Source of the DNA: an uncultured Gammaproteobacteria bacterium
GTDB lineage: Bacteria; Patescibacteriota; Patescibacteriia; SBBC01; CAIJZX01
DNA length: 64,000 bases
Reading direction: 5' to 3'
Assembly (NCBI GenBank): GCA_964397195.1
Contig: CAYNGY010000002.1
Span: forward strand, 116,012 to 180,011
Each line of letters starts with the position of its first letter. The first letter of the stretch is position 1. Below the pieces are notes generated by a model. The model ran no database searches and was not told where the DNA came from. It worked only from the letters and a program-made list of their open reading frames with translations. The translations under genes and the position numbers were made by a program. Below, one piece after another: positions 4,846-38,966 of the stretch.

Positions 4846-4874
4846 TTGACAAAATAGAGGGTTTGGTGTAAGGT
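4846..4874 (+). promoter_or_regulatory. sigma70-like promoter (TTGACA-N17-TAAGGT) for the second GT4 gene
   Basis: TTGACA at 4846-4851 and TAAGGT at 4869-4874, followed by GTCAATTT at 4880-4887 and the ATG at 4893. Confidence 0.3.
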
Positions 4875-4892
4875 CTCGGGTCAATTTTGTTT

Positions 4893-6101
4893 ATGTCTCC
4901 ATCGCTCACTATCGCCATGATCGGCCAAAAGGGCATGCCCGCTATTCACGGCGGGATCGAACGTCATGTTGAAGAACTGTCGGTTCGTTTAGCGTCCATG
5001 GGGCATACGGTGACCGTGTACACTCGGCCGTATTTTACGCCGACCGGCATGAAATCGTATCGCGGCGTCCGCCTTATTTCGTTACCGTCGATCCGTTCAA
5101 AGCATCTCGACGCCATCAGCCACACGTTTGCGGCGACGATTCACGCCGTGCGGTCTGGAGCGGATATCATTCACTACCACGGTGTCGGCCCGTCGATTTT
5201 ATCGTTCCTGCCAAAACTCCTTCGATCGAAAGCAAAAGTTGTTTCAACGTTTCATTGTATTGATCGGAAGCATCAGAAGTGGGGATTTATCGCCCGACAG
5301 TTTCTTCGTCATGGCGAATGGTCGTCGGTGACTCATCCGGATGAAACGATTGTGGTTTCAAAAACCCTGAAGAAGTACGTCAAACATATGTTCGGCAAGC
5401 AGGCGACGTATATTCCGAATGGTGTTGAGATTCCGCGAACATCCGCGCGGCGACGCTCACCAACGCTCCGCCGGTTCAATCTAACGCCGGGTGAATATAT
5501 TATTTCGGTCTCGCGCTTGATTCCGCACAAAGGCATCCATCATCTCATTTCTGCCTTTCGTCAGGTCTCAACGAACCACCGACTGGTGATTGTCGGCGAC
5601 GGATTTTATACGGATGAGTACGTTCAGTACCTCCACGAGCTCGCCGGCGATGATGCGCGCATTGTTTTCACCGGTTTTCAGAGTGGTCAGGATCTTCGTG
5701 ACTTGTTCTCGCACGCGGCGCTGTACGTTCTCCCATCACAAGCGGAAGGATTACCGATCGCTCTACTCGAAGCGGCCAGCTTCGGAGTCGGGATTGTGGC
5801 CAGTGATATTCCGGAAAATCGGGAAGTGATTCATGCGGATCGTTCACCAATCGGTCTGACGTTCGTGACCGGTGACATTGACGACCTGCGGCGTGTCCTG
5901 ACGGATGCCCTGCGGCGCCCAGCGGCCATGCGGAACATGGCCCAGCGGGCCAAAAAAGTCGTTGCCGAGCATTACCAATGGCGTGATGTGGCGACGCAGA
6001 TGGTAGCGGTCTACACTAGGCTCTGTAATCGTCCGACATCCGTTCGGGTGGCGTCGGCTGGTTCGATGCGGTCCCGTTCGGTTGCGGTGAACGCGGCGTA
6101 A
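4893..6101 (+). CDS. GT4-family glycosyltransferase
   Basis: The track start at 4887 is TTG; the first ATG is 4893. MIGQKGMPAIHGGIERHVEEL and the C-terminal EGLPIALLEAASFGVGIVASDIPENRE are typical GT4 motifs. Confidence 0.8.
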   Translation: MSPSLTIAMIGQKGMPAIHGGIERHVEELSVRLASMGHTVTVYTRPYFTPTGMKSYRGVRLISLPSIRSKHLDAISHTFAATIHAVRSGADIIHYHGVGPSILSFLPKLLRSKAKVVSTFHCIDRKHQKWGFIARQFLRHGEWSSVTHPDETIVVSKTLKKYVKHMFGKQATYIPNGVEIPRTSARRRSPTLRRFNLTPGEYIISVSRLIPHKGIHHLISAFRQVSTNHRLVIVGDGFYTDEYVQYLHELAGDDARIVFTGFQSGQDLRDLFSHAALYVLPSQAEGLPIALLEAASFGVGIVASDIPENREVIHADRSPIGLTFVTGDIDDLRRVLTDALRRPAAMRNMAQRAKKVVAEHYQWRDVATQMVAVYTRLCNRPTSVRVASAGSMRSRSVAVNAA

Positions 6102-19013: not shown

Positions 19014-19676
19014 TCAGAGGCTGACCGATTCGATCGGTGCGCCACCGAAGTGGGTGATGATCCGATTGGCCTCATCGGTGAAGGGCGGTTCGAATCGGAA
19101 CCGCTGACGCATGACGAGTTCGTACCAGGTGCGGGGCAGGCCGCGTGATTCACGGTCGTCGTCAGCCGCCCGGAGCCGATCGTAGTGGACGAGCGGGTGC
19201 GGCTGGACCCAGACGATTGAGGTGTCGAAATCGCGCTGATGCGCCTGTTTGGTGATGGCCAGACGTGACCAGCGATCGAGATTGCAGGCGTCGACGACGA
19301 AGGCGATATCGCGTCGAATCAGCTCGGTACAAAGTTGCCCGCGGACCCAGTGCGTCAGGAACTGGCGCTTCCAGAACGCATGACTATGGATGGCGGTGTT
19401 TTCTTGCAGGTCCGGGTAGAGGGCGTTCAGCTCGGCGTGGAGCACATCAGTCTCGATACAGACGAGATCTTGCAGGTCGGGGTGACTTCGCCGGAAGTGT
19501 GACTTCCCAGCACAGCTGAATCCGACGAGCAGGACCACGCGCTTGGTGAAGGCGGATGTGGTGGCCGCCTGAACCCGTGGCCCGATGATGTGCGTCGAAA
19601 GGAAGGCGCGCTCTGGTGCCTGACGGAGCAACATTCGTGCCGCGACAAATCCCTTTGCCATCTGCCAACTGAACAT
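19014..19676 (-). CDS. P-loop kinase (AAA_33/zeta-toxin-like NTP-binding) protein, chromosomal paralog
   Basis: Walker A VGFSCAGKSHF and the motifs DACNL, IVWVQ and RFEPP, all shared with the cassette gene 32813..33442(-). Confidence 0.6.
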   Translation of the reverse strand: MFSWQMAKGFVAARMLLRQAPERAFLSTHIIGPRVQAATTSAFTKRVVLLVGFSCAGKSHFRRSHPDLQDLVCIETDVLHAELNALYPDLQENTAIHSHAFWKRQFLTHWVRGQLCTELIRRDIAFVVDACNLDRWSRLAITKQAHQRDFDTSIVWVQPHPLVHYDRLRAADDDRESRGLPRTWYELVMRQRFRFEPPFTDEANRIITHFGGAPIESVSL

Positions 19677-19776
19677 AAAGGTGCCTCCCCGTGCGCAACA
19701 ATTACTCCTGTGACCGAGCGCAGAGACTAGCCGATGGTTGTCTTCCTGTCAACCCCCGATGGGTGACGATGGATTT

Positions 19777-20361
19777 CTAGGGGAGGAGACGGAGGACTGA
19801 CCACCAGGCCGAGATATAGTCGGCGCGGCGATTTTGATGTTTTACGTAGTAGGCGTGTTCCCAGACGTCGAGGCCGATCAGGGGTACGTGCTGGTCTAGA
19901 ATCGGGGAATCTTGATTGGGTGTGGCACGCAGCGCAAGCTTTCCGGCTTGATCACGGACGAGCCACATCCATCCACTGCCAAAAACCGCCGCGGCGCCGT
20001 CGCTAAACTTCTTCTTAAAGTCATCAAGTGAGCCAAACGTACTTGTAATTTCGGCAATCAAGCTCGCATCGATCTTTTTTTCCGGACCGATGATATTCCA
20101 GAAGAAAGAGTGGTTGGCATGCCCCCCGCCGTGATTTCGGATTGCGAGGCGGACTGTGTCAGGAATATCGAGCGTTGCTAGCTGCCCGAGGAGCGATCCG
20201 AGCTCAAGCGACTGCAAGTGCGGGTACGGTTCAAGCGCGGCATTCAGCTTGTCTACGTATGTCTGATGATGTTTGGTATGGTGAATACGCATCGTTTCCG
20301 TATCAATATACGGTTCGAGCGCGTCGTAGTCGTATCCGAGGGCGGGGAGGGTGTAGGACAT
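19777..20361 (-). CDS. sodA: Fe/Mn superoxide dismutase
   Basis: YTLPALGYDYDALEPYID, HHTKHHQTYV and DVWEHAYY. The start was trimmed to the ATG at 20361 (MSYTLP); the track ORF extends to 20466. Confidence 0.9.
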   Translation of the reverse strand: MSYTLPALGYDYDALEPYIDTETMRIHHTKHHQTYVDKLNAALEPYPHLQSLELGSLLGQLATLDIPDTVRLAIRNHGGGHANHSFFWNIIGPEKKIDASLIAEITSTFGSLDDFKKKFSDGAAAVFGSGWMWLVRDQAGKLALRATPNQDSPILDQHVPLIGLDVWEHAYYVKHQNRRADYISAWWSVLRLLP

Positions 20362-20450
20362 AGAAAAGATGAATGATGAGGGTTTAGACATTGTACAGGA
20401 AAAAACCATTCTCCGTGACCGTTGTGGATTCGAGATAAATATTGTATAGT

Positions 20451-22277
20451 ATGAACGAGTTTTCAAACGTTGTGATCACCTCAAAAACCCAACAAATATC
20501 TCTCGCCTTCGGTGCCCTCGCGGTTATAGTGACCGTTAGTGTGCTTGGTATTGGTCGCGTTGCAGAGGCGCAATCCACAACCTCGCCGAAACTCTATATT
20601 TACCAGGGCGTCATCTCGATCAGTCCGGCCGCCGGGCAGGTAATGGAGTTGGGGGCAAATGGGACGACGATTGCGACGAATGGAAATATTGCGCTTCGAC
20701 CGTCGAATGGGACGGTGACCTTCGGGCCGGCAAATGCCATTGATGAGGGCGGCGAGCTTGATCTTCAAGGAGCCTCGTCGTCGTATCCAACGTGGGGGAT
20801 CGATTCGTACGTTGATTTGTTCGCCACTCCCGATGTTGTCTCATACCTACGTTTCTATCACGGCGCAAGTGTTCCATTGAAGGTGGGAAATGACGGAAAA
20901 ACGAGTATCAATGGCCAACTGTGCTTTGGGGCCGGGCTTGGGGACTGTATCTCAAACTGGTCGTCGGTTGGTGGAGGTGTTGACACCTTGTCGTCACTCT
21001 TGAGCCCGATAAATAGCGGTAATACCTCGATGACCCCAGTTGTTCTTGGGCAAGGTAGTGGGCCGGTGACCGCGACGGCCCGTTTTGATATCAGTACCAC
21101 GTCGAGTGCCTTTAATGCCTATCCGTCCCTCAACGCGGTTTCGGCACACAGTTCAGTGGTTAGCGATCCGAAAGGTGCGGCCATCCGGGCGGAGAACCCA
21201 AATGGAGGGTGGGCGGGATACTTTAGCGGCCGGGTGGGGGTGTTTCAGCCGGGTGCTTCTGATCCCGGATTTGCCGACGCGACGGTAGTTCGACTCTCGG
21301 GAGATCATACGTTTCAATCATCGCAAGGCGTGTTGAATGTTACGAACTTGCGCCCGAGTTCCTACGCGGCGCGTTTTGTTGGCGCGGTCGAAATTACCGG
21401 GAGCGGTGGTCGGGTGCCTGGCGCTGCGTCAACCGGTGTGGACGCCGATGCCGCGCTCGACATATTTAATTCGACATCGACGGAAGTATTTCGAGCGACG
21501 AGCCCTTCGCTCAACGGGGCGGCCATTTGGGCCCAAGCGGGGAATCCTTACACAAATGGCATGGTCACCTCAGCGTTCTATGGCCAGGGTGGCGCTTGGC
21601 CAAGCCCCGCCTCGGATCAGGTCGGCCTGCAATACGCCGGGTTCTTCACGGGTGCAAATGTGGTTGAAGGCGTTCTTTCTATCCAGCCGTATGATGCGTC
21701 TGACCGATGGGGATTATTAATACAGGGGATGACCCGAAGAGCGAATGTCGCTTTTAATGGTGCTAAACAAACGGCTGAGATGCAGGTGTGTGAGCTGAGT
21801 AGCAATACCTGTTATGGAAAGTACGTTGCCACGATTGGTCATGGGACGCGTGGTGGGGACCGGGCGACAACACAACTCTGTTACGAAAGTGGCGGAGCGG
21901 TGACCTGCCGAGCGATGTATGTGAGCCAGTCGGGTTGTGTTGGGACCGGGTCGGTCGGACTTAAATTGGGAAGTAGCTCGTCGGCGGCCCGGAGTTATTT
22001 CGTGACGCCAGTCCCACAAACTCCTTCTTGCCGCGGTGCGGAGTTGGGTGCACCGTACCAAGAGTATGTGGCGAATGCCGGTGATTCCCCGTATCGGGCG
22101 GCGCCGACAGCTCAGCAATTTTGTGTGTCGGGGACGCCGACGCTCGTCGCGCCAAATTATGCCCAAGATCAGCTCCATGGCGGCTGTTACCTCGTCTCAA
22201 CTTCTCCGCCGGCGTTCCAAGCGTACGCGGTGACTCTACCAACTACTGAGTTAGTACAAACGCTTGAAATCCGTTAA
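20451..22277 (+). CDS. secreted protein, tandem paralog family member A (unrecognised family)
   Basis: The track start at 20442 is TTG; the ATG is at 20451. Signal peptide, then the module YQGVISISPAAGQVMELGANGTTIATNG, an internal ENPNGGWAGYFSG, and a C-terminal TQLCYESGGAVTC Cys motif. Confidence 0.6.
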   Translation: MNEFSNVVITSKTQQISLAFGALAVIVTVSVLGIGRVAEAQSTTSPKLYIYQGVISISPAAGQVMELGANGTTIATNGNIALRPSNGTVTFGPANAIDEGGELDLQGASSSYPTWGIDSYVDLFATPDVVSYLRFYHGASVPLKVGNDGKTSINGQLCFGAGLGDCISNWSSVGGGVDTLSSLLSPINSGNTSMTPVVLGQGSGPVTATARFDISTTSSAFNAYPSLNAVSAHSSVVSDPKGAAIRAENPNGGWAGYFSGRVGVFQPGASDPGFADATVVRLSGDHTFQSSQGVLNVTNLRPSSYAARFVGAVEITGSGGRVPGAASTGVDADAALDIFNSTSTEVFRATSPSLNGAAIWAQAGNPYTNGMVTSAFYGQGGAWPSPASDQVGLQYAGFFTGANVVEGVLSIQPYDASDRWGLLIQGMTRRANVAFNGAKQTAEMQVCELSSNTCYGKYVATIGHGTRGGDRATTQLCYESGGAVTCRAMYVSQSGCVGTGSVGLKLGSSSSAARSYFVTPVPQTPSCRGAELGAPYQEYVANAGDSPYRAAPTAQQFCVSGTPTLVAPNYAQDQLHGGCYLVSTSPPAFQAYAVTLPTTELVQTLEIR

Positions 22278-31432: not shown

Positions 31433-31552
31433 AGGGGCATTGTACCATATTTTTTCGGAGGTCGGGAGTCTCTTTTTATCTTATGTTAGCCAAACTTTAT
31501 AGTATGACAAACGAAACTGAAAAAACGCTGAAGGCTAGGGCGGGAGGAAGTT

Positions 31553-31918
31553 TTACGAATCGCGCAAGATTTTTTCCATCTTCCGCCCGGTCGCTAATTC
31601 GTCTACCAGCTTATCCAAATACCGGACTTTTTTCGTGAGCGGGTTCTTAAGATCTTCAATCCGATATCCACAAATCACGCCGGTGATGCGGTTTGCTTTT
31701 GTGTTGAGCGTCGCCTCGTGGAAGAACGTTTCGAATGTGACGTTTCTCTTGATCAGTTCCCGTAGCTTTTTTGTATCAAAACCCGTTAGCCAAGTGATGA
31801 CTTGGTGGAGTTCTTTTTTCGTTCGGCCTTTCCGTTCTACTTTTGCGAGATATAACGGGTAGACCGTGGCGAAGGTCATCTGCGCCATTCGTTGATGGTG
31901 TGTTTGGTTGGGGGTCAT
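31553..31918 (-). CDS. DUF2200-domain protein
   Basis: 121 aa reading MTFATVYPLYLAKVERKGRTKKELHQVITWLTGFD. Its start lies only about 15 nt from attC-like repeat A. Confidence 0.55.
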   Translation of the reverse strand: MTPNQTHHQRMAQMTFATVYPLYLAKVERKGRTKKELHQVITWLTGFDTKKLRELIKRNVTFETFFHEATLNTKANRITGVICGYRIEDLKNPLTKKVRYLDKLVDELATGRKMEKILRDS

Positions 31919-31933
31919 GGTGATGGGAATTTC

Positions 31934-32010
31934 GGCTAACGTTTGCGGCTCATGCGCGGCGGACCCTGAGCGAAGTCGAAGAGGGAGTGGCGGATAGACG
32001 CTGTTAGGTA
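31934..32010. repeat. attC-like site A (77 bp imperfect palindrome; ends GGCTAAC...GTTAGGT)
   Basis: CTAACGTTTGCGGCTCATGCGCGGCGGACCCTGAGCGAAGTCGAAGAGGGAGTGGCGGATAGACGCTGTTAGG, with internal inverted symmetry. It lies immediately downstream of the hydrolase stop at 32022. Confidence 0.55.
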
Positions 32011-32021
32011 GCGTTGTCCGT

Positions 32022-32603
32022 CTATGACTTCAGACATTCCTCTAGCAGTTCGGGAAATTCGACAGTGCCTAAGTCACTAAGACAAAAATGTCCTTTATTG
32101 GCAAACTCTTGATAGGTCGCCTGATCAATGTTTTCTCGAATGAGATCAATTGTTTTTAGAACACTTTCATCATCATTTTTTGAGTAAAACACAGAAACAC
32201 CGCCGGTTCGTGAAACGAGATCTCGATCTATTGAAAAGTTAAAGAAATCCGCTGTGTCAGAGTGAGGGTTATTGGAAGGGTTGGTCCAGGGTGCAACGAG
32301 AACCACCTTACCGACGCGAAGATCTTTATGTTCGCTGAGGTATCGGAGTAAAAAACCACCACCACAGCTATGACCGACTAGCATTGTTTCGGGGGTCAAT
32401 TCAAAGCGCTCCAATTCTTTCTTCCATAGAGCATAGCGCGGTTGCCATGGTGTTGGAATTTCCAGTGCGACAGTAAAAATATCCTTGAGCATCAGTTGCT
32501 TCGAAAGCCAAGGAAACCAATGATCATTGCTATTTGTTGGACGTACCGGATCGTAGTATTCTTCTCGATCAGGTCGTCCGGGAATTAGTATCGTGTTTCT
32601 CAT
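32022..32603 (-). CDS. alpha/beta hydrolase of the YdeN/RBBP9-like serine hydrolase type
   Basis: ILIPGRPD...NDHWFPWL at the N-terminus and the nucleophile motif LVGHSCGGG. The start was trimmed to the ATG at 32603. Confidence 0.6.
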   Translation of the reverse strand: MRNTILIPGRPDREEYYDPVRPTNSNDHWFPWLSKQLMLKDIFTVALEIPTPWQPRYALWKKELERFELTPETMLVGHSCGGGFLLRYLSEHKDLRVGKVVLVAPWTNPSNNPHSDTADFFNFSIDRDLVSRTGGVSVFYSKNDDESVLKTIDLIRENIDQATYQEFANKGHFCLSDLGTVEFPELLEECLKS

Positions 32604-32812
32604 AGACTTGAATAATATTGGTGGCCGGTCGATTTCACACAACGTCCGCGGATATGAGAAGTTGCTGCTTCGTTTCGGCGGTACAATTCTACCACCGCCG
32701 GGGCGAAGCAGCAATTTGCACGTAGGAAATTGGGTTGGGTTTCTTCTTGTGACATCTTGATGTTTAGACAACACCCGACAGTTTCCTGCCGGGTGCTTTG
32801 GAGCATTCTTGT

Positions 32813-33442
32813 TTATGCGCTGGTCTGAATGAGCAGGGAATCCGCCTCTTCCGGCCTCGGCTCTTCGAACCGTGGCTGCTGGATCTGCCGATAGAGATCC
32901 ACCCAGGCGGCCGGACGCCCACGCTGACGGAGCTGATCATCGGCTCGTTGTAGCCGCTCGAGCAACCTGACTTCTTGGCATTGGATCCAGACGATTTCCG
33001 TCTGGTATCCATATTGCTTGGCTAGCTTGAGCCGCTCGACTCGTTCCTTGCGCACGAGGTTGCAGGAATCATTGACGACATTCACGCCTTGTTGGAAGGC
33101 GGCGGCTAGAACAACTTGCCGTACCTTTTGCGTCAGCCACTGCCGTGGCCAGTAGGCTGGTCCAGTGACCGTCCTGTCGTCGTTGAGCCAGGGAAAAGCA
33201 GCGTTTAGTCGAACGTGAATCTGATCAGTGCTGAGTTGGAAGAATCGTGCCCTCACCGAATCGTGTTCCAGCCAGTAGTTCTTGCCTGACTTGGAATACC
33301 CGACCATCGCTACGAACTTTCGTTCTCGCGGGTACTCATCCCATGCCTTGATGAAACCGGAAACAACGGTCTTCAGCCGAGACCTATTTTCAGGGACGAG
33401 TAGCTTGATCTCCGTCAGCAAAACGGCAAAGAGCTTTCGCAT
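32813..33442 (-). CDS. P-loop kinase (AAA_33/zeta-toxin-like), cassette-borne paralog of 19014..19676
   Basis: Walker A VGYSKSGKNYW plus DSCNL, IVWIQ and RFEEP, the same motif order as the chromosomal copy. Confidence 0.6.
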   Translation of the reverse strand: MRKLFAVLLTEIKLLVPENRSRLKTVVSGFIKAWDEYPRERKFVAMVGYSKSGKNYWLEHDSVRARFFQLSTDQIHVRLNAAFPWLNDDRTVTGPAYWPRQWLTQKVRQVVLAAAFQQGVNVVNDSCNLVRKERVERLKLAKQYGYQTEIVWIQCQEVRLLERLQRADDQLRQRGRPAAWVDLYRQIQQPRFEEPRPEEADSLLIQTSA

Positions 33443-33542
33443 GTCGACCTCTTTCGTGGGTACGTATACAGCGTGCCGTGCTACTCTACACTTTTTTTTA
33501 AAAAAGTCAAGTCCCTTTGCATGAACGGCGGTGTGACTAGGG

Positions 33543-33592
33543 GTAACGAAAAACCAACCCCGATTTCCTCCGTCTCCTATCCGCTGTTAGAC
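33543..33592. repeat. degenerate attC-like remnant (GGTAACG...GCTGTTAGAC)
   Basis: A short element with TAACG at the left and CCGCTGTTAGAC at the right, directly abutting attC-like site B. This could be an empty cassette. Confidence 0.25.
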
Positions 33593-33615
33593 GATGCGGT
33601 GCGCAGCGGAGTTTC

Positions 33616-33692
33616 GACTAACGTTTGCGTCTCATCCGCGGCGGACCCTGAGCGAAGTCGAAGAGGCAGTGGCGGATAGACGCTGTTAAGTG
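33616..33692. repeat. attC-like site B (77 bp; CGACTAACGTTTGCG...GCTGTTAAGT)
   Basis: Nearly identical to repeat A over CTAACGTTTGCG.CTCAT.CGCGGCGGACCCTGAGCGAAGTCGAAGAGG.AGTGGCGGATAGACGCTGTTA. Confidence 0.55.
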
Positions 33693-33809
33693 ATGTAAAC
33701 TTCTATCTTCGTTTTTCTGTACAAATTATGTTTATTGTTTAGGAAAGTATTATTTCTGTTTCAGGAAAAGTGAGAGTGGCTGGGAGTAAATCGTTTTTGT
33801 CATTATTCC

Positions 33810-34550
33810 TTATTTGGGCTTTACTGCTTTAATCCATAATGCCATCGGAGTAGTTTGTCTATATGCTAAATCAGAATATTTCCTTGCTAGTTTTACCGAT
33901 GGTTTTGGTTCTGTTATTTCTGAAATGTAAAAACCAGCTTGCGTTAAAGAGTTTGCTAAATCGGATAATGTCCAATGGTAGTCTTGATACAGAGTTTCTT
34001 TGCCATCAAGTCGTCTTGAAACTATTTGTATAACGCTTCCGCTTGAAAAATAGTTGTACTCAACTGGTGTTCTGATATTATCAGGTTTTGAAGATGGGGC
34101 GAAGGGATGTATTTCGCTTATGATGATAATGCCAGATTTTTTGAGCAGGGCAAAAGCATCTGTCATGATTTTATTTATTTTCTTTATTGATGTAATCTCC
34201 AAAAGTACGTGTTCAAGTAGAACAAAATCAAATGAATTATTTTGTAGACCTAGTTGTTCTAATTTTGTGATATCGCCTTGAACGTATGTAGTTTTCGGAT
34301 TGCTTTTGTTGGCGAGTTCAAGTTGTTTTTTTTCTATCTCCACGCCCGTGCCGATGGCGCCACGTTTTGAAAGTAAATCAAGCCAATAACCATTGCCACT
34401 GCCAAGCTCGAGTACTTTTTTATTTTTTACATTGCCGAACATTCGAAGTAGTTCTGGCTCACCAATGTATTTTTTACCAAAGTTTGGAGTGTAAGCACTC
34501 TTGGCTTGTTTTTCAGTCCACTCGTGTTTTTTTAGATGGTTGCTTGTCAT
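33810..34550 (-). CDS. class I SAM-dependent methyltransferase (AT-rich cassette gene)
   Basis: Motif I VLELGSGNGYW. GC is well below the flanking DNA. Confidence 0.7.
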   Translation of the reverse strand: MTSNHLKKHEWTEKQAKSAYTPNFGKKYIGEPELLRMFGNVKNKKVLELGSGNGYWLDLLSKRGAIGTGVEIEKKQLELANKSNPKTTYVQGDITKLEQLGLQNNSFDFVLLEHVLLEITSIKKINKIMTDAFALLKKSGIIIISEIHPFAPSSKPDNIRTPVEYNYFSSGSVIQIVSRRLDGKETLYQDYHWTLSDLANSLTQAGFYISEITEPKPSVKLARKYSDLAYRQTTPMALWIKAVKPK

Positions 34551-34662
34551 AATATATACCTAGTTATTCCTTGCTCACCCTACATCGATTATTAAAGTAA
34601 TATTTTCCGTGGCTTTTAATATCACTGATGTTTTATATATGTACTAAGATAAAAGTTTATTT

Positions 34663-34728
34663 CACTTAACGTTTGCGTCTCATCCGCGGCGAAGCGTAGC
34701 GGAGTGGCGGATAGACGCCGTTAGGCGC
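34663..34728. repeat. attC-like site C (66 bp; ACTTAAC...GTTAGGC)
   Basis: CACTTAACGTTTGCGTCTCATCCGCGGCGAAGCGTAGCGGAGTGGCGGATAGACGCCGTTAGGCGCC. It has the conserved ends, a different shorter middle, and the classic GTTAGGC core. Confidence 0.55.
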
Positions 34729-34742
34729 CGTAATAATAGGTG

Positions 34743-35093
34743 CTATAAGGCTATAGATTCTTTTTTTGAGAATTTGGCACCTAAGCAATCCCAACCCTTT
34801 GTTACCATTTTACAACTTGTGGTGGGAAAGTCCGACTCCCTTTCCTTATTTGTCGGATAGATGATCCCAGCACACCATCCAGAGGTCTCATTAACATAGA
34901 TGATTGATGGAATACCCAGATCCTCAATAAAAAATTGATTTGTATTCAATGCTGGGGAATTTATGTTTCGCGCGACAGCGTCATTTCTATCACAAGACTT
35001 TACATTTGTTGATAGAGAGTAGGGTTTTGGGATTGTAAAAAACAACATCGTCAGGGTAAGAACTATGATAGTGACAGTAGTTGTTTTTTTCAT
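34743..35093 (-). CDS. small secreted protein (signal peptide, 4 Cys), cassette gene
   Basis: 116 aa, MKKTTTVTIIVLTLTMLFF... The start codon lies 8 nt from attC-like site D. Confidence 0.45.
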   Translation of the reverse strand: MKKTTTVTIIVLTLTMLFFTIPKPYSLSTNVKSCDRNDAVARNINSPALNTNQFFIEDLGIPSIIYVNETSGWCAGIIYPTNKERESDFPTTSCKMVTKGWDCLGAKFSKKESIAL

Positions 35094-35100
35094 ATTATGG

Positions 35101-35158
35101 CGCCTAACGTTTGCGACTATACGAAGTACTCGTTATTTCGAATAGTCGCTGTTAGGAG
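35101..35158. repeat. attC-like site D (58 bp; GCCTAAC...GTTAGGA)
   Basis: GCGCCTAACGTTTGCGACTATACGAAGTACTCGTTATTTCGAATAGTCGCTGTTAGGAGC. It has the conserved ends, a distinct internal palindrome GCGACTAT...ATAGTCGC, and the classic inverse core GCCTAAC. Confidence 0.55.
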
Positions 35159-35184
35159 CTGTCGAATATTTTTCAATGTTGGGG

Positions 35185-35601
35185 TTAATAAACATACCAG
35201 CCAGACCCATTACATAAAATCTGTTGTTGTGAAAATGGTATTCCAAAGAATGTATATCCGGTAACCCGTGCCTGATACGGCTTGCTCATTGGCGTGATCT
35301 TTTCATCACCACCAATCATGATGCCAGCACAACGCTGCGCTGTATCTTTTACATCGTCATATCCCGTGTCGTTTGGTGTTAGTTCTTTAATCCAGGCTAC
35401 GCGTCGACGAATTTCGAGACCGTGCTGGATAGGATTCCCGTGGTAACTTGATTCAATGAGCGCATAACGAGCGAATTCTCTCTGATCACCTGTGTATGAC
35501 TTTGCGTTATCGCCAGTGAGCAAGGGAATACCAAGGGCGGCTACAATTCCTACGATAACAAACAACCAGATTGTCTGTGTTCTATTGAATTTCATATACA
35601 T
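35185..35601 (-). CDS. small secreted protein (signal peptide), cassette gene
   Basis: 138 aa, MYMKFNRTQTIWLFVIVGIVAALG... AT-rich. Confidence 0.45.
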   Translation of the reverse strand: MYMKFNRTQTIWLFVIVGIVAALGIPLLTGDNAKSYTGDQREFARYALIESSYHGNPIQHGLEIRRRVAWIKELTPNDTGYDDVKDTAQRCAGIMIGGDEKITPMSKPYQARVTGYTFFGIPFSQQQILCNGSGWYVY

Positions 35602-35837
35602 CTAGGAAAAATATTCGATTGCTCCTAACTCGTTATTATGCGAACTCTGGGGATTGGATACGCCAAGTATCTCACCATTAATCAAGTTTTGCCAGTCTTC
35701 TGGTAGACGTGTTTCGTAGAGATTCAGGGGGGGGCAAAATGACCTGGTCATTTTCGGGTAAGGGCCGCGCTCCTCGATCCCGCTTCGTACGACAAGCCCA
35801 GCCCTTCGATGGGTTTTGTGGGCGGATGAATTTTTCT

Positions 35838-35914
35838 TGGTACCGGGGGGCGGGATCGAACCGCCGACCTCGGGCTTATGAGTCCCGCGCTCTAACCAAC
35901 TGAGCTACCCCGGC
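35838..35914 (-). tRNA. tRNA-Met (anticodon CAT; elongator type, tRNA-Ile2 not excluded)
   Basis: RC reads GCCGGGGTAGCTCAGTTGGTTAGAGCGCGGGACTCATAAGCCCGAGGTCGGCGGTTCGATCCCGCCCCCCGGTACCA. Cloverleaf with D-arm TAGCTCAGTTGGTTAGAGC, anticodon loop CTCATAA, T-loop TTCGATC and an encoded CCA. Confidence 0.8.
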
Positions 35915-36057
35915 AAGATGTTGTATTGTGTTTGTTTTAGTGGGCCTTTTTTATTGTTTCTACCTAGGTTCCGGGGCGTGTCTGTTCCTGCGGAACATGG
36001 ACCCGCCCGTCTCGCCCCGCGAAAACAGAAGCAGTTCTGTTTTCTTGTGGGCTCGAC

Positions 36058-36080
36058 CCAACTGAGCTACCCCGGCAAGA
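36058..36080. repeat. 23-bp direct repeat of the tRNA-Met 5' end (CCAACTGAGCTACCCCGGCAAGA), also present at 35896-35918
   Basis: The two copies match exactly and lie 162 bp apart. The interval between them contains the hairpin AAAACAGAA-GCAG-TTCTGTTTT. Confidence 0.6.
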
Positions 36081-36144: not shown

Positions 36145-37494
36145 CTAGAACGAAAAACGTTCATAGTGGATGTGCCGGTCTTCGTATCCGAGGCCTCGGA
36201 GTTGAGTCACCACGGCCTTCATCATCATCGGCGGCCCACACAAGAATACTTCCCGGTCATAGAAGTCTGGGACGAGGCGAACAATCTTTTCTCGGTCAAT
36301 ATATCCCGACTCATACCCAGGGAGTGGAGCATTCAAGAAATACACAATGCGGAAGGCGCCATGTTGCGTGTAGGTGTCGAGCTCGGCGCGGAGGGCAATA
36401 TCTTGTACCGTTCGGTTGGCATAGAGCAGGACCGTATCCCGATCTGTAATGTGCTCGTCGTCGAGCAGCGCCCGGAGCGGGGTAATGCCAATTCCGCCGG
36501 CAATCATTAATATTTTTTTCCGATTCGCCCGGGAGAGAATAAATTGCCCCAATGGGCCGTCAATCAGCACTGGTGTACCCGGGCGGAGTTGTTCGAGCGT
36601 TTTTGTGTAGTCACCGCTGGCCTTCATGGAGAAACGGAGGAAATGGCCATTCGGTCCGGCGGAAAAAGAAAACGGGTGTGACTGCCAGCCGTGGGTGCGG
36701 CTCAGGAAACGAAGATTCGCGTACTGGCCGGGCTTGAAGCCAAAACGATCGAGATGCTTGCCAATAATATAGACCGATGTGACGCCGAGGACTTCCGTCT
36801 GGACATGATCGACCCGAAATTGGTGGAACCAGATGAGCCAGAGTGGTCGAATCCAGCGGTAGATGACGAAACTCCCGCCAACAACGCAGTTGAGGGTTAG
36901 CCAGTAGATCCACGGCCCGCCACTCCGCACATCGCCGGTGTGCAATTGATGGAGGAAGATGAGTCCAACTGCGACATACGTCAGGAGATGGACGAAATAC
37001 CAGGTCTCGTACGGAACTTTTTTTCGGACAATAACTATGGAACTCAAAATGACGACGATCAGGAGAACCGATCCGAGGTAGGAGTTAAAAACGTGCTCGC
37101 GGTTGGTGAGGTAATCGACGAACTGGCCGATGAGCGATGATCCGTTAGACCTCGCTGTGCCGTAGGTCAGTAAAAAAGGATGAGCAATCATCAGTGAGGC
37201 GATGGTGTACCCGATCCAGCGGTGAACAGCATTCAGCTTATCGAACCCAAATGGTCGCTCGATGAACGGCGCTCGGCCGATGAAGAGCAGTTGCAGGAGT
37301 AAGGCAAATTGTCCGAGCAGTCCGGTGAGTCGGCCAAAGGCAAACCAGATATTTCCGTCGCCCGGGTTGTCGAGATAATACGCCGATCCAGTCTGCCAAA
37401 TCCAGATGATTGCTAAAACATTCGCCGCCAATATACTGACGACCGCATACTGAGCGAGTGAGTGGCGATTTGGCCAGCGGAAATAGATGGTCAT
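36145..37494 (-). CDS. ferric-reductase-like transmembrane flavocytochrome (FRE domain + FAD-binding + NAD(P)-binding)
   Basis: 449 aa. N-terminal 6-TM region with paired His, then a ferredoxin-reductase-type FAD/NAD domain (HPFSF, GGIGITP). Confidence 0.75.
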   Translation of the reverse strand: MTIYFRWPNRHSLAQYAVVSILAANVLAIIWIWQTGSAYYLDNPGDGNIWFAFGRLTGLLGQFALLLQLLFIGRAPFIERPFGFDKLNAVHRWIGYTIASLMIAHPFLLTYGTARSNGSSLIGQFVDYLTNREHVFNSYLGSVLLIVVILSSIVIVRKKVPYETWYFVHLLTYVAVGLIFLHQLHTGDVRSGGPWIYWLTLNCVVGGSFVIYRWIRPLWLIWFHQFRVDHVQTEVLGVTSVYIIGKHLDRFGFKPGQYANLRFLSRTHGWQSHPFSFSAGPNGHFLRFSMKASGDYTKTLEQLRPGTPVLIDGPLGQFILSRANRKKILMIAGGIGITPLRALLDDEHITDRDTVLLYANRTVQDIALRAELDTYTQHGAFRIVYFLNAPLPGYESGYIDREKIVRLVPDFYDREVFLCGPPMMMKAVVTQLRGLGYEDRHIHYERFSF

Positions 37495-37997
37495 GGTCGT
37501 TCGAGCGCGATACGGGCGACGGATGGCGTTTCGATGCCGGGCTCAAAAATCAAATGAAGCCCGCGGGCGTCGGATGGAATCAAGAAGGAAAGTTCTTCTT
37601 GAAGACTATCGCCATCGAGTAATGGACCGGAGAGCTGAGTCGAGCCAGATGGGTTGGTGGTTACATCGTAGACCCGTCCGCGATCATCTTTGGCATGAAA
37701 ATGGAGGAGCGGAATGACCTGGATCGTGTGGCCTGTATTATTTCCTAAAAACACTGTGGTCACGAGGTATACGTGGTCGGCTGGGGCGACGATGGGGCTG
37801 GCGCCGGGTGTTCGTTTTGCATCGAGAGCGCGCAAGGCCACACGGTCAATCATGACCGTATCTCCGAGTGTGGCCGTGGCCGATTGAAAATGGAATGTCG
37901 GTTGACCCGGCCAGAAATATATTGCTGCCAACGTCATGCCCGCGGTTACGACGGCGGTGATCAGGACGGTGATAAAGGTGGCGTGGCGCGTCGTCAT
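37491..37997 (-). CDS. membrane-anchored DUF4352-like Ig-fold protein
   Basis: N-terminal TM helix. YLVTTVFLGNNTGHTIQV...LHFHAKDDRGRVY resembles DUF4352. ATGA overlap with the FRE gene. Confidence 0.35.
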   Translation of the reverse strand: MTTRHATFITVLITAVVTAGMTLAAIYFWPGQPTFHFQSATATLGDTVMIDRVALRALDAKRTPGASPIVAPADHVYLVTTVFLGNNTGHTIQVIPLLHFHAKDDRGRVYDVTTNPSGSTQLSGPLLDGDSLQEELSFLIPSDARGLHLIFEPGIETPSVARIALERP

Positions 37998-38000
37998 GAC

Positions 38001-38966
38001 TTATGGTGCGAATGGGCCAATGTAGTAGGCTTGGAGCGTTGTATTGAGTGCTTTGCTGGAGTGGGAATGGCCACCGGCTGACCCAATAAACGCGCTGTAC
38101 ATATTCTTGCCACAGTATGGAACGATGACGTCGCCTCCGGGGTGTTGGCTTGGCTTACTGACGTAGGCGGTGACGTTGTAGACCTTATTGAGCGGGCTGA
38201 GGTAGACCCAGCAATTGCTCCGGGTGCTATGCGCCGCCACGTCTGCCGTTGTGCATGATCCGCCTTGACCACACGCGGGTGGTGTTGGGGTTGGCGTGGG
38301 TGTTGGGGTTGGTGGTGGGGCGGTATTGGTGTTGGCTGGCGGCGTACTGGTATTCGTTGGTGTGCTGGGCGTATGTGTGGTTGGTGAGGAAGGATTGGAA
38401 TTCGTTGGGGTGTTGGCGGTTGGTTTGGCGGTATTTTTATTTGGGGTGCTTGTTTTTGTGTTGGTGTTTTTGGTTGGCGTTGTCGGTTTGGTAGGAGTCG
38501 GAGTTGGCGTGGTGGCGACTTGTGTCGGGGTGGTCGCGGAAACAGATATTGGATCAGATGCGGCAACGTTCAATGAATTGACGGTGGTGACGGTGTAGAC
38601 GTAGGTGGTGCTGGGGAGCAATACGAAGTCGATAAACTGGGTTCCGTAGACCACGCCAATAAATGTGTCATTGCGGGTGATCGCATATCCGTGGGCCCCG
38701 ACGACGGCGTCCCAGCTCACCGTCACGTCGGTACCAGTGACAGACGTGGTGACGTTTGCTGGTGAGGACAGGAGAACCGACGGAGTGCTATTGGTGTTTA
38801 CACTGGCGTTGGTGACCGTGGTCTCGTTGGTAGTCGTGTTAGTTGGGGCGATCGTTTCGATCGAGAGCGAGTGCGCATTCGGCCATCGTCCCGGACCTTC
38901 ATGCTTGAGCCACCAACCAAAAACCACCAGCGAGGAGCAGATAATGAAAACAATAATAATTCTCAT
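38001..38966 (-). CDS. secreted FN3 domain protein with Thr/Pro-rich linker and C-terminal cytochrome b5-like heme-binding domain
   Basis: Signal/TM, then an FN3-like TGTDVTVSWDAVVGAHGYAITRN, a TPTPTP low-complexity linker, and the C-terminal cyt b5 signature ...SQHPGGDVIVPYCGKNMYSAFIGSAGGHSHS (HPGG plus a second His). Confidence 0.7.
   Translation of the reverse strand: MRIIIVFIICSSLVVFGWWLKHEGPGRWPNAHSLSIETIAPTNTTTNETTVTNASVNTNSTPSVLLSSPANVTTSVTGTDVTVSWDAVVGAHGYAITRNDTFIGVVYGTQFIDFVLLPSTTYVYTVTTVNSLNVAASDPISVSATTPTQVATTPTPTPTKPTTPTKNTNTKTSTPNKNTAKPTANTPTNSNPSSPTTHTPSTPTNTSTPPANTNTAPPPTPTPTPTPTPPACGQGGSCTTADVAAHSTRSNCWVYLSPLNKVYNVTAYVSKPSQHPGGDVIVPYCGKNMYSAFIGSAGGHSHSSKALNTTLQAYYIGPFAP

Follow-up and report, generated by a model that had tools for sequence, protein, structure and literature searches.

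Two members of a rare AAA_33 subfamily of P-loop kinases were found on the minus strand of the window (the whole 64-kb stretch of DNA that was analysed). Taken as a whole, they are probably best explained as kinases that are not toxins, one of them a resident of the core chromosome and the other a xenolog carried in a cassette array without an integrase (Table 1). As a kinase finding the result is modest, in that it defines a rare AAA_33 subfamily with an acceptor site departing from that of polynucleotide kinases. One reduced genome retains two deeply diverged copies of the kinase, one of which was apparently acquired with a cassette, and the surroundings of this copy may matter more than the kinase itself. 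An undescribed split-attC cassette architecture is put forward tentatively, as is, separately, a kinase family with an active site based on His and a novel acceptor; these proposals may well not hold.

Both minus-strand open reading frames called as kinases in the first-pass annotation (209 and 220 aa) were present where it had placed them. Pairwise alignment with BLASTP showed 57 identical residues out of 190 (30%) with an E-value of 4e-29, and ran collinearly from a point ahead of the P-loop through to the C-terminus, so that the identity extended beyond the P-loop and was not negligible. Both proteins matched AAA_33 (PF13671) in Pfam with 47.7 bits (209 aa) and 57.4 bits (220 aa) against a cutoff of 27, which placed them in one family, and the motifs quoted in the annotation (Walker A, DSCNL/DACNL, IVWIQ/IVWVQ and RFEEP/RFEPP) were family-conserved columns. 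The AAA_33, PNK-like or zeta-like fold proposed for both kinases agreed with Pfam, the structural model, Foldseek and the PDB profile search. A tblastn search of the 64-kb window returned these two copies only.

A family profile was built from both window proteins and two close homologues (4 sequences) and searched against 1.84 billion cluster representatives. It produced 316 matches at E ≤ 1e-3, of which 62 passed E ≤ 1e-30; almost all were 200–235 aa long, and both window kinases were retrieved at E ≤ 1e-100. As only 316 representatives were found at E ≤ 1e-3, the cassette and core kinases share a narrow subfamily and not merely a P-loop. Homologue searches with a word index were nearly empty, with 3, 1 and 6 matches. 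All 57 aligned family members matched AAA_33. The alignment of these 57 sequences showed an N-terminus extended by about 45 residues, a Walker A of VGFSKSGK[TS] and further conserved segments, namely [ST]xxIHxxLN, DDNTVxGxAYWxRQxLT, DSCNL and the lid RLxxAD, as well as W180, Q188 and E199. The Walker A motif of P-loop kinases is GxxxxGK[ST], in which the Ser/Thr binds Mg2+, and this Ser/Thr was absent in 11 of the 57 members. Comparison of the cassette kinase with its 80%-identical homologue at locus L001 gave a dN/dS of 0.16, which indicated purifying selection and therefore that the GKN variant of Walker A is maintained by selection. Distant multi-domain matches with APH and AAA_33 fused were rejected as family relatives, as these were generic AAA_33 proteins and uninformative on the family. 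Five genome loci with a family kinase include the titles Saccharibacteria, Patescibacteria (two) and WWE3, one family protein carries the name Patescibacteria, and no family kinase was found in viral contigs. Overall, the family appears to be restricted to Patescibacteria, and on these grounds the window itself would come from a member of this group.

The model of the cassette kinase (AlphaFold with the family alignment) had a pLDDT of 96.2. It showed a P-loop kinase core of five strands that carries a lid and is preceded by two helices at the N-terminus. The top groups in a Foldseek search of the PDB were the kinase domains of mammalian PNKP and Clostridium thermocellum Pnk (CthPnk), zeta/PezT, PFK-2 and AvrRxo1, with E-values of approximately 1e-5 each. 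Since these four groups had similar E-values, the fold by itself did not discriminate between relatives. The family profile searched against PDB sequences had its best hits with two Mucorales RNA 5'-OH kinases, LcoKIN (E 7e-10) and RazKIN (E 1e-7), followed by CthPnk (E 4e-7), mammalian PNKP (E 2.5e-4), PFK-2 (E 7e-4), PSTK (E 1.5e-3) and PezT (E 0.049). The closest solved relatives by profile were thus 5'-OH polynucleotide kinases. In addition, the best PHROG match of the cassette kinase was a polynucleotide kinase, and a weak NCBIfam match with Pnkp was obtained.

The essential and acceptor-binding residues of CthPnk were mapped onto the 57-member family through the PDB-profile alignment, with cassette numbering (PMC3902929, PMC11571804). 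Lys21, the essential P-loop Lys, corresponded to an invariant Lys54. The position of the Mg2+-binding Ser22, a P-loop Ser that is essential in CthPnk (PMC3902929), was Thr/Ser in 46 of 57 members and Asn in the cassette kinase and its 80% homologue. The acceptor-binding Ser37 aligned with Ser/Thr72 in 57 of 57. An Asp at the position of the general base Asp38 was found in 23 of 57 members (40%), both window copies (D73) included; the general base of MciKIN is D36, and its change from D to N nearly abolishes activity (PMC11571804). Arg41, which is essential and anchors the first phosphodiester, was replaced by His76 (54/57), and Thr80, another first-phosphodiester anchor, by Cys127 (44/57). The lid residue Arg116 aligned with Arg163 (54/57), and Arg120 and Arg123, which hold the gamma-phosphate, were without a conserved counterpart in the family. 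Because two defining features of the acceptor site, Arg41 and Thr80, are replaced in this way, the family was not filed as polynucleotide kinases, although it is PNK-like in descent. As the general-base Asp is variable, Arg41 and Thr80 are substituted and the lid arginines are unconserved, catalysis and the acceptor are given here as predictions, and the activity of some family members may be limited to NTP binding or hydrolysis. Both genes would encode stand-alone P-loop phosphotransferase-like proteins of a small family whose acceptor site derives from the polynucleotide-kinase type. Lys54 of Walker A and Arg163 of the lid would bind the NTP, whose gamma-phosphate would pass to an acceptor hydroxyl. 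The acceptor would be held by the family-specific Ser/Thr72, His76, Asp88/Asp89, Tyr97-Trp98-x-Arg100-Gln101, Cys127 and Asn128, and the best guess is that it is either the end of a nucleic acid or a nucleotide-like molecule bearing a phosphate.

It is unlikely that both proteins are genuine 5'-OH polynucleotide kinases healing RNA or DNA ends, despite the profile matches with the Mucorales enzymes and CthPnk, the weak NCBIfam and PHROG matches and the presence in both window copies of D73 and of Ser/Thr at the Ser37 position. The likeness to CthPnk, RazKIN/LcoKIN, PNKP and T4 Pnk covers the P-loop, the DxxN(L) strand motif, the helix-loop-helix lid with its Arg aligned to Arg116, a D(D/Q)xTVxGxA segment and the Ser/Thr before the acceptor-site Asp. 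However, the family differs from these enzymes in having His for the essential Arg41, Cys for Thr80 and an Asp that is kept by a minority of members, and in lacking the lid Arg120/Arg123. It also has an invariant Asp168, an additional inserted helix (YWxRQxLT) and, at the N-terminus, a helical hairpin of 45 aa, and a ligase or phosphatase partner was found in none of the 24 kinase loci. A small-molecule phosphotransferase of the chloramphenicol phosphotransferase (CPT) type, acting on antibiotics or xenobiotics and carried as adaptive cargo, is quite improbable for the cassette kinase. The array also holds a methyltransferase and a hydrolase, and CPT matches were obtained for 5 of 57 members (best 5.6e-9) and listed for loci L010 and L028. 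Against this, the cassette kinase scored 12.5 bits in Pfam where the cutoff is 22, the core kinase had no match, no CPT structure was among the Foldseek or PDB-profile matches, and most family members lie in ordinary chromosomal contexts.

The toxin, addiction or defence function suggested in the first-pass annotation, with the hydrolase as a candidate antitoxin, made an attractive toxin-antitoxin story that was unsupported and has been removed. A zeta/PezT-like toxin phosphorylating UNAG would account for the overall fold, including the N-terminal helices ahead of the P-loop (Foldseek TM 0.59–0.68), and for weak Zeta_toxin (PF06414) matches in 32 of 57 members. This reading is nevertheless very unlikely. 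The cassette kinase scored 15.1 bits for Zeta_toxin in Pfam, below the cutoff of 22.3, and the core kinase had no match; identity to the toxins was 9–12%, the profile E-value with PezT was the weakest of those above, and the catalytic Asp was not conserved. DSCNL occupies the presumed position of a UNAG-binding motif in zeta toxins. PADLOC matched neither the kinases nor the hydrolase. The kinase unit was a single ORF without an epsilon/PezA-like partner, and clustering of neighbours over 24 loci showed no family-wide neighbour. The recurring neighbours formed local synteny groups only (TrpRS with amidase, GalU, HisRS-like, PP2C, MurB and glycosyltransferases). The hydrolase forms a cassette of its own, which defeats the idea of it as antitoxin, and is missing from L001. 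Our best guess is that the kinase does not act as the zeta-type toxin in a toxin-antitoxin pair.

The core kinase lay beside sod and sufS/sufU as had been annotated. The order sod-kinase-sufU recurred in L010, with identities of 60% for SOD, 55% for SufU and 34% for the kinase, and because of this recurrence the core kinase is considered a resident, fast-evolving orthologue. It was at most 33% identical to any family representative compared. In both genomes sod preceded the kinase by about 100 nt and was transcribed in the same direction (window 19014-20466; L010 1502-2854), and a functional link of the core kinase to oxidative stress is possible, based on two genomes. That the kinase had been duplicated into a cassette, as the annotation proposed, was contradicted by the phylogeny, in which the two copies shared a small clade in 3 of 200 neighbour-joining bootstraps and were never sisters. 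The core kinase ranked last of the 56 family representatives in similarity to the cassette kinase. A recent duplication of the core gene inside this genome would fit the shared family and genome and the similar GC contents (0.556 for the cassette kinase and 0.609 for the core kinase, against 0.548 for the window), but it is extremely unlikely, as the copies are 28–30% identical to each other whereas the cassette kinase is 40–46% identical to many representatives from other organisms and 80% to that of L001. In the preferred explanation, of a resident and a xenolog, the core copy would be a vertically inherited, fast-evolving gene of the sod-kinase-sufU block. The cassette copy would descend from another branch of the family and be carried as a unit of one gene, which is bounded by attC-type ends and has a promoter-like element of its own.

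The location of one kinase in a cassette was confirmed by an attC-type array at 31.4–35.6 kb. The array (31433-35629) consisted of six ORFs next to tRNA-Met, without a tyrosine recombinase in 64 kb (CALIN-like). The tRNA was the sole Rfam match in the window. All six ORFs were co-oriented on the minus strand and each started 12–36 nt past a G|TTRRRY junction, and the GC content of the stretch at 31.5–35.8 kb was low and heterogeneous (0.37–0.47 for most ORFs). Four of these ORFs, namely those of 138 aa and 116 aa, the methyltransferase and the hydrolase, were followed by compact sites with the imperfectly palindromic pattern RYYYAAC-L''...L'-AAAC-GTTRRRY. In total, four compact sites and one split site at the 3' ends of cassettes combined RYYYAAC...GTTRRRY and L boxes, as called from motif and palindrome features. 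Such motifs were confined to 31.9–35.2 kb and occurred nowhere else in the 64 kb. MAFFT and RNAalifold on the compact sites gave a poor consensus, the alignment being structure-blind. The 138-aa cassette recurred in the array of locus L032 with 91% nucleotide identity and different neighbours. No IntI or other tyrosine recombinase was found in the 64-kb window of the 246-kb contig by motif search and phmmer with approximate probes, nor was an adjacent intI with attI, and the array is therefore of CALIN type as far as the window shows.

Table 1. Positions of the kinase genes, cassette-array elements and tRNA gene in the 64-kb window.
Feature	Position	Strand	Remarks
Core-chromosome family member, 220 aa	19014..19676	-	Canonical GKS Walker A; divergent
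Compact attC-like site	31934..32011	-	After hydrolase
Ser_hydrolase (PF06821), 193 aa, separate cassette	32022..32603	-	GC 0.435; start 32603
Downstream half of split attC-like site	32636..32745	-	Stem A', 62-nt side hairpin, L' CTCATATCCGC, GGAC spacer, R' G|TTGTGTG
Cassette-borne AAA_33/PNK-like P-loop protein, 209 aa	32813..33442	-	Walker A GYSKSGKN (Asn after Lys)
Promoter-like TTGACT-16-TAGAGT	33483..33510	-	Inside unit, upstream of kinase start
Upstream half of split attC-like site	33549..33593	-	R'' CGTCTAAC, L'' AGCGGATAGGAG, 25-nt stem A
Compact attC-like site	33616..33692	-	After methyltransferase cassette (ORF 33810..34550)
Compact attC-like site	34664..34728	-	After 116-aa ORF cassette
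Compact attC-like site	35102..35158	-	After 138-aa ORF cassette
tRNA-Met	35838..35914	-	~210 nt from first G|TT junction of array (35629)

The kinase and the hydrolase had been described as sharing a cassette. This was not upheld, because the downstream half-site with its G|TT junction (32745-32636) forms an attC-like boundary that separates the two genes. Homology to L001 ended at this boundary, and L001 had another gene downstream, with no hydrolase. A 250-aa hydrolase ORF, which is also the NCBI call, was over-extended across the attC-like hairpin (32604-32774); a second, independent gene prediction, like the match in Pfam, supported the 193-aa protein with its start at 32603. A Ser_hydrolase (PF06821) was also located at 4850-5410 of locus L006, where the surroundings are ordinary chromosome and a family kinase lies some 4 kb away, and this proximity is probably a coincidence.

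The kinase unit of L001 had the same bordering elements as that of the window and different neighbours. Identity between the two units was 77–86% at the borders (86% for the upstream half-site), 45–54% in the leader and trailer and approximately 30% further out. Both hexamers of the promoter-like element were invariant in L001, in a leader that was only 54% identical. The joined flanks of the window unit folded as a three-way junction with -50 kcal/mol. ORFs enclosed by split sites were found at 33593-32636 of the window (minus strand), at 1743-2395 and 2471-3430 of L001 and at 1135-1460 of L032, including a 115-aa ORF in L001 and a 71-aa ORF in L032, where the stems were unrelated in sequence. 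The order was R''-L''-stem, ORF and stem'-side hairpin-L'-spacer-R', and the joined flanks formed three-way junctions with -38 to -56 kcal/mol. Among the family kinases, inverted-repeat flanks were found for those of the window and L001 only and were absent around 21 other members. Ordinary cassettes showed unusually long complementary R'/R'' extensions (17–28 nt) flanking each ORF. Because the boxes extend so far, ordinary cassettes also tested positive for complementarity between upstream and downstream flanks, so that the evidence for the split layout is the box order and not complementarity. A naive scan for R''/R' complementarity was not discriminating, and folding the joined flanks of ordinary cassettes was uninformative as these flanks hold whole compact attC sites.

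The array resembles integron cassettes and CALIN elements in its co-oriented small ORFs, G|TTRRRY junctions, palindromes of variable length, heterogeneous GC content and cassettes that different arrays share. It differs from them in having no IntI or tyrosine recombinase in 64 kb, in a kinase ORF placed between L'' and L' at the position of the variable terminal structure, in the extra 25-bp stem with a side hairpin and in a promoter-like element belonging to the kinase unit. In described attC sites the variable terminal structure can be as small as 3 unpaired nucleotides, and in larger ones, VCR for example, it is branched (PMC2727003). In the limited literature searched, no description was found of an ORF at this position or of cassette arrays in Patescibacteria. 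An ORF with a promoter inside an attC site, the halves of which are zipped by an extra stem of 10–25 bp and a side hairpin, may be an undescribed cassette architecture. The three arrays with split sites (window, L001 and L032), all without an integrase, probably belong to Patescibacteria. If functional, the split layout would extend the range of integron-type recombination sites, and if integrases recombine split sites, attC folding would tolerate kilobase loops, which bears on cassette creation.

Other genes and elements were observed in and around the array. The methyltransferase cassette matched the PADLOC model mad2 (mads_2) with an E-value of 4e-15 over the SAM-MTase domain, and L001 likewise had a methyltransferase cassette upstream of its kinase unit, the two being 28% identical. 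A 30-nt copy of the 5' end of tRNA-Met (35889-35918) was located at 36051-36080, 162 nt upstream of the tRNA gene and with 93% identity; it may have been left behind by an integration event or by a tRNA that has decayed. Finally, the region just beyond the tRNA (36145-38966) encoded a ferric-reductase/NOX-like flavocytochrome (449 aa), a DUF4352 protein and a cytochrome b5-domain protein, which form a redox cluster of a genome that is probably reduced.
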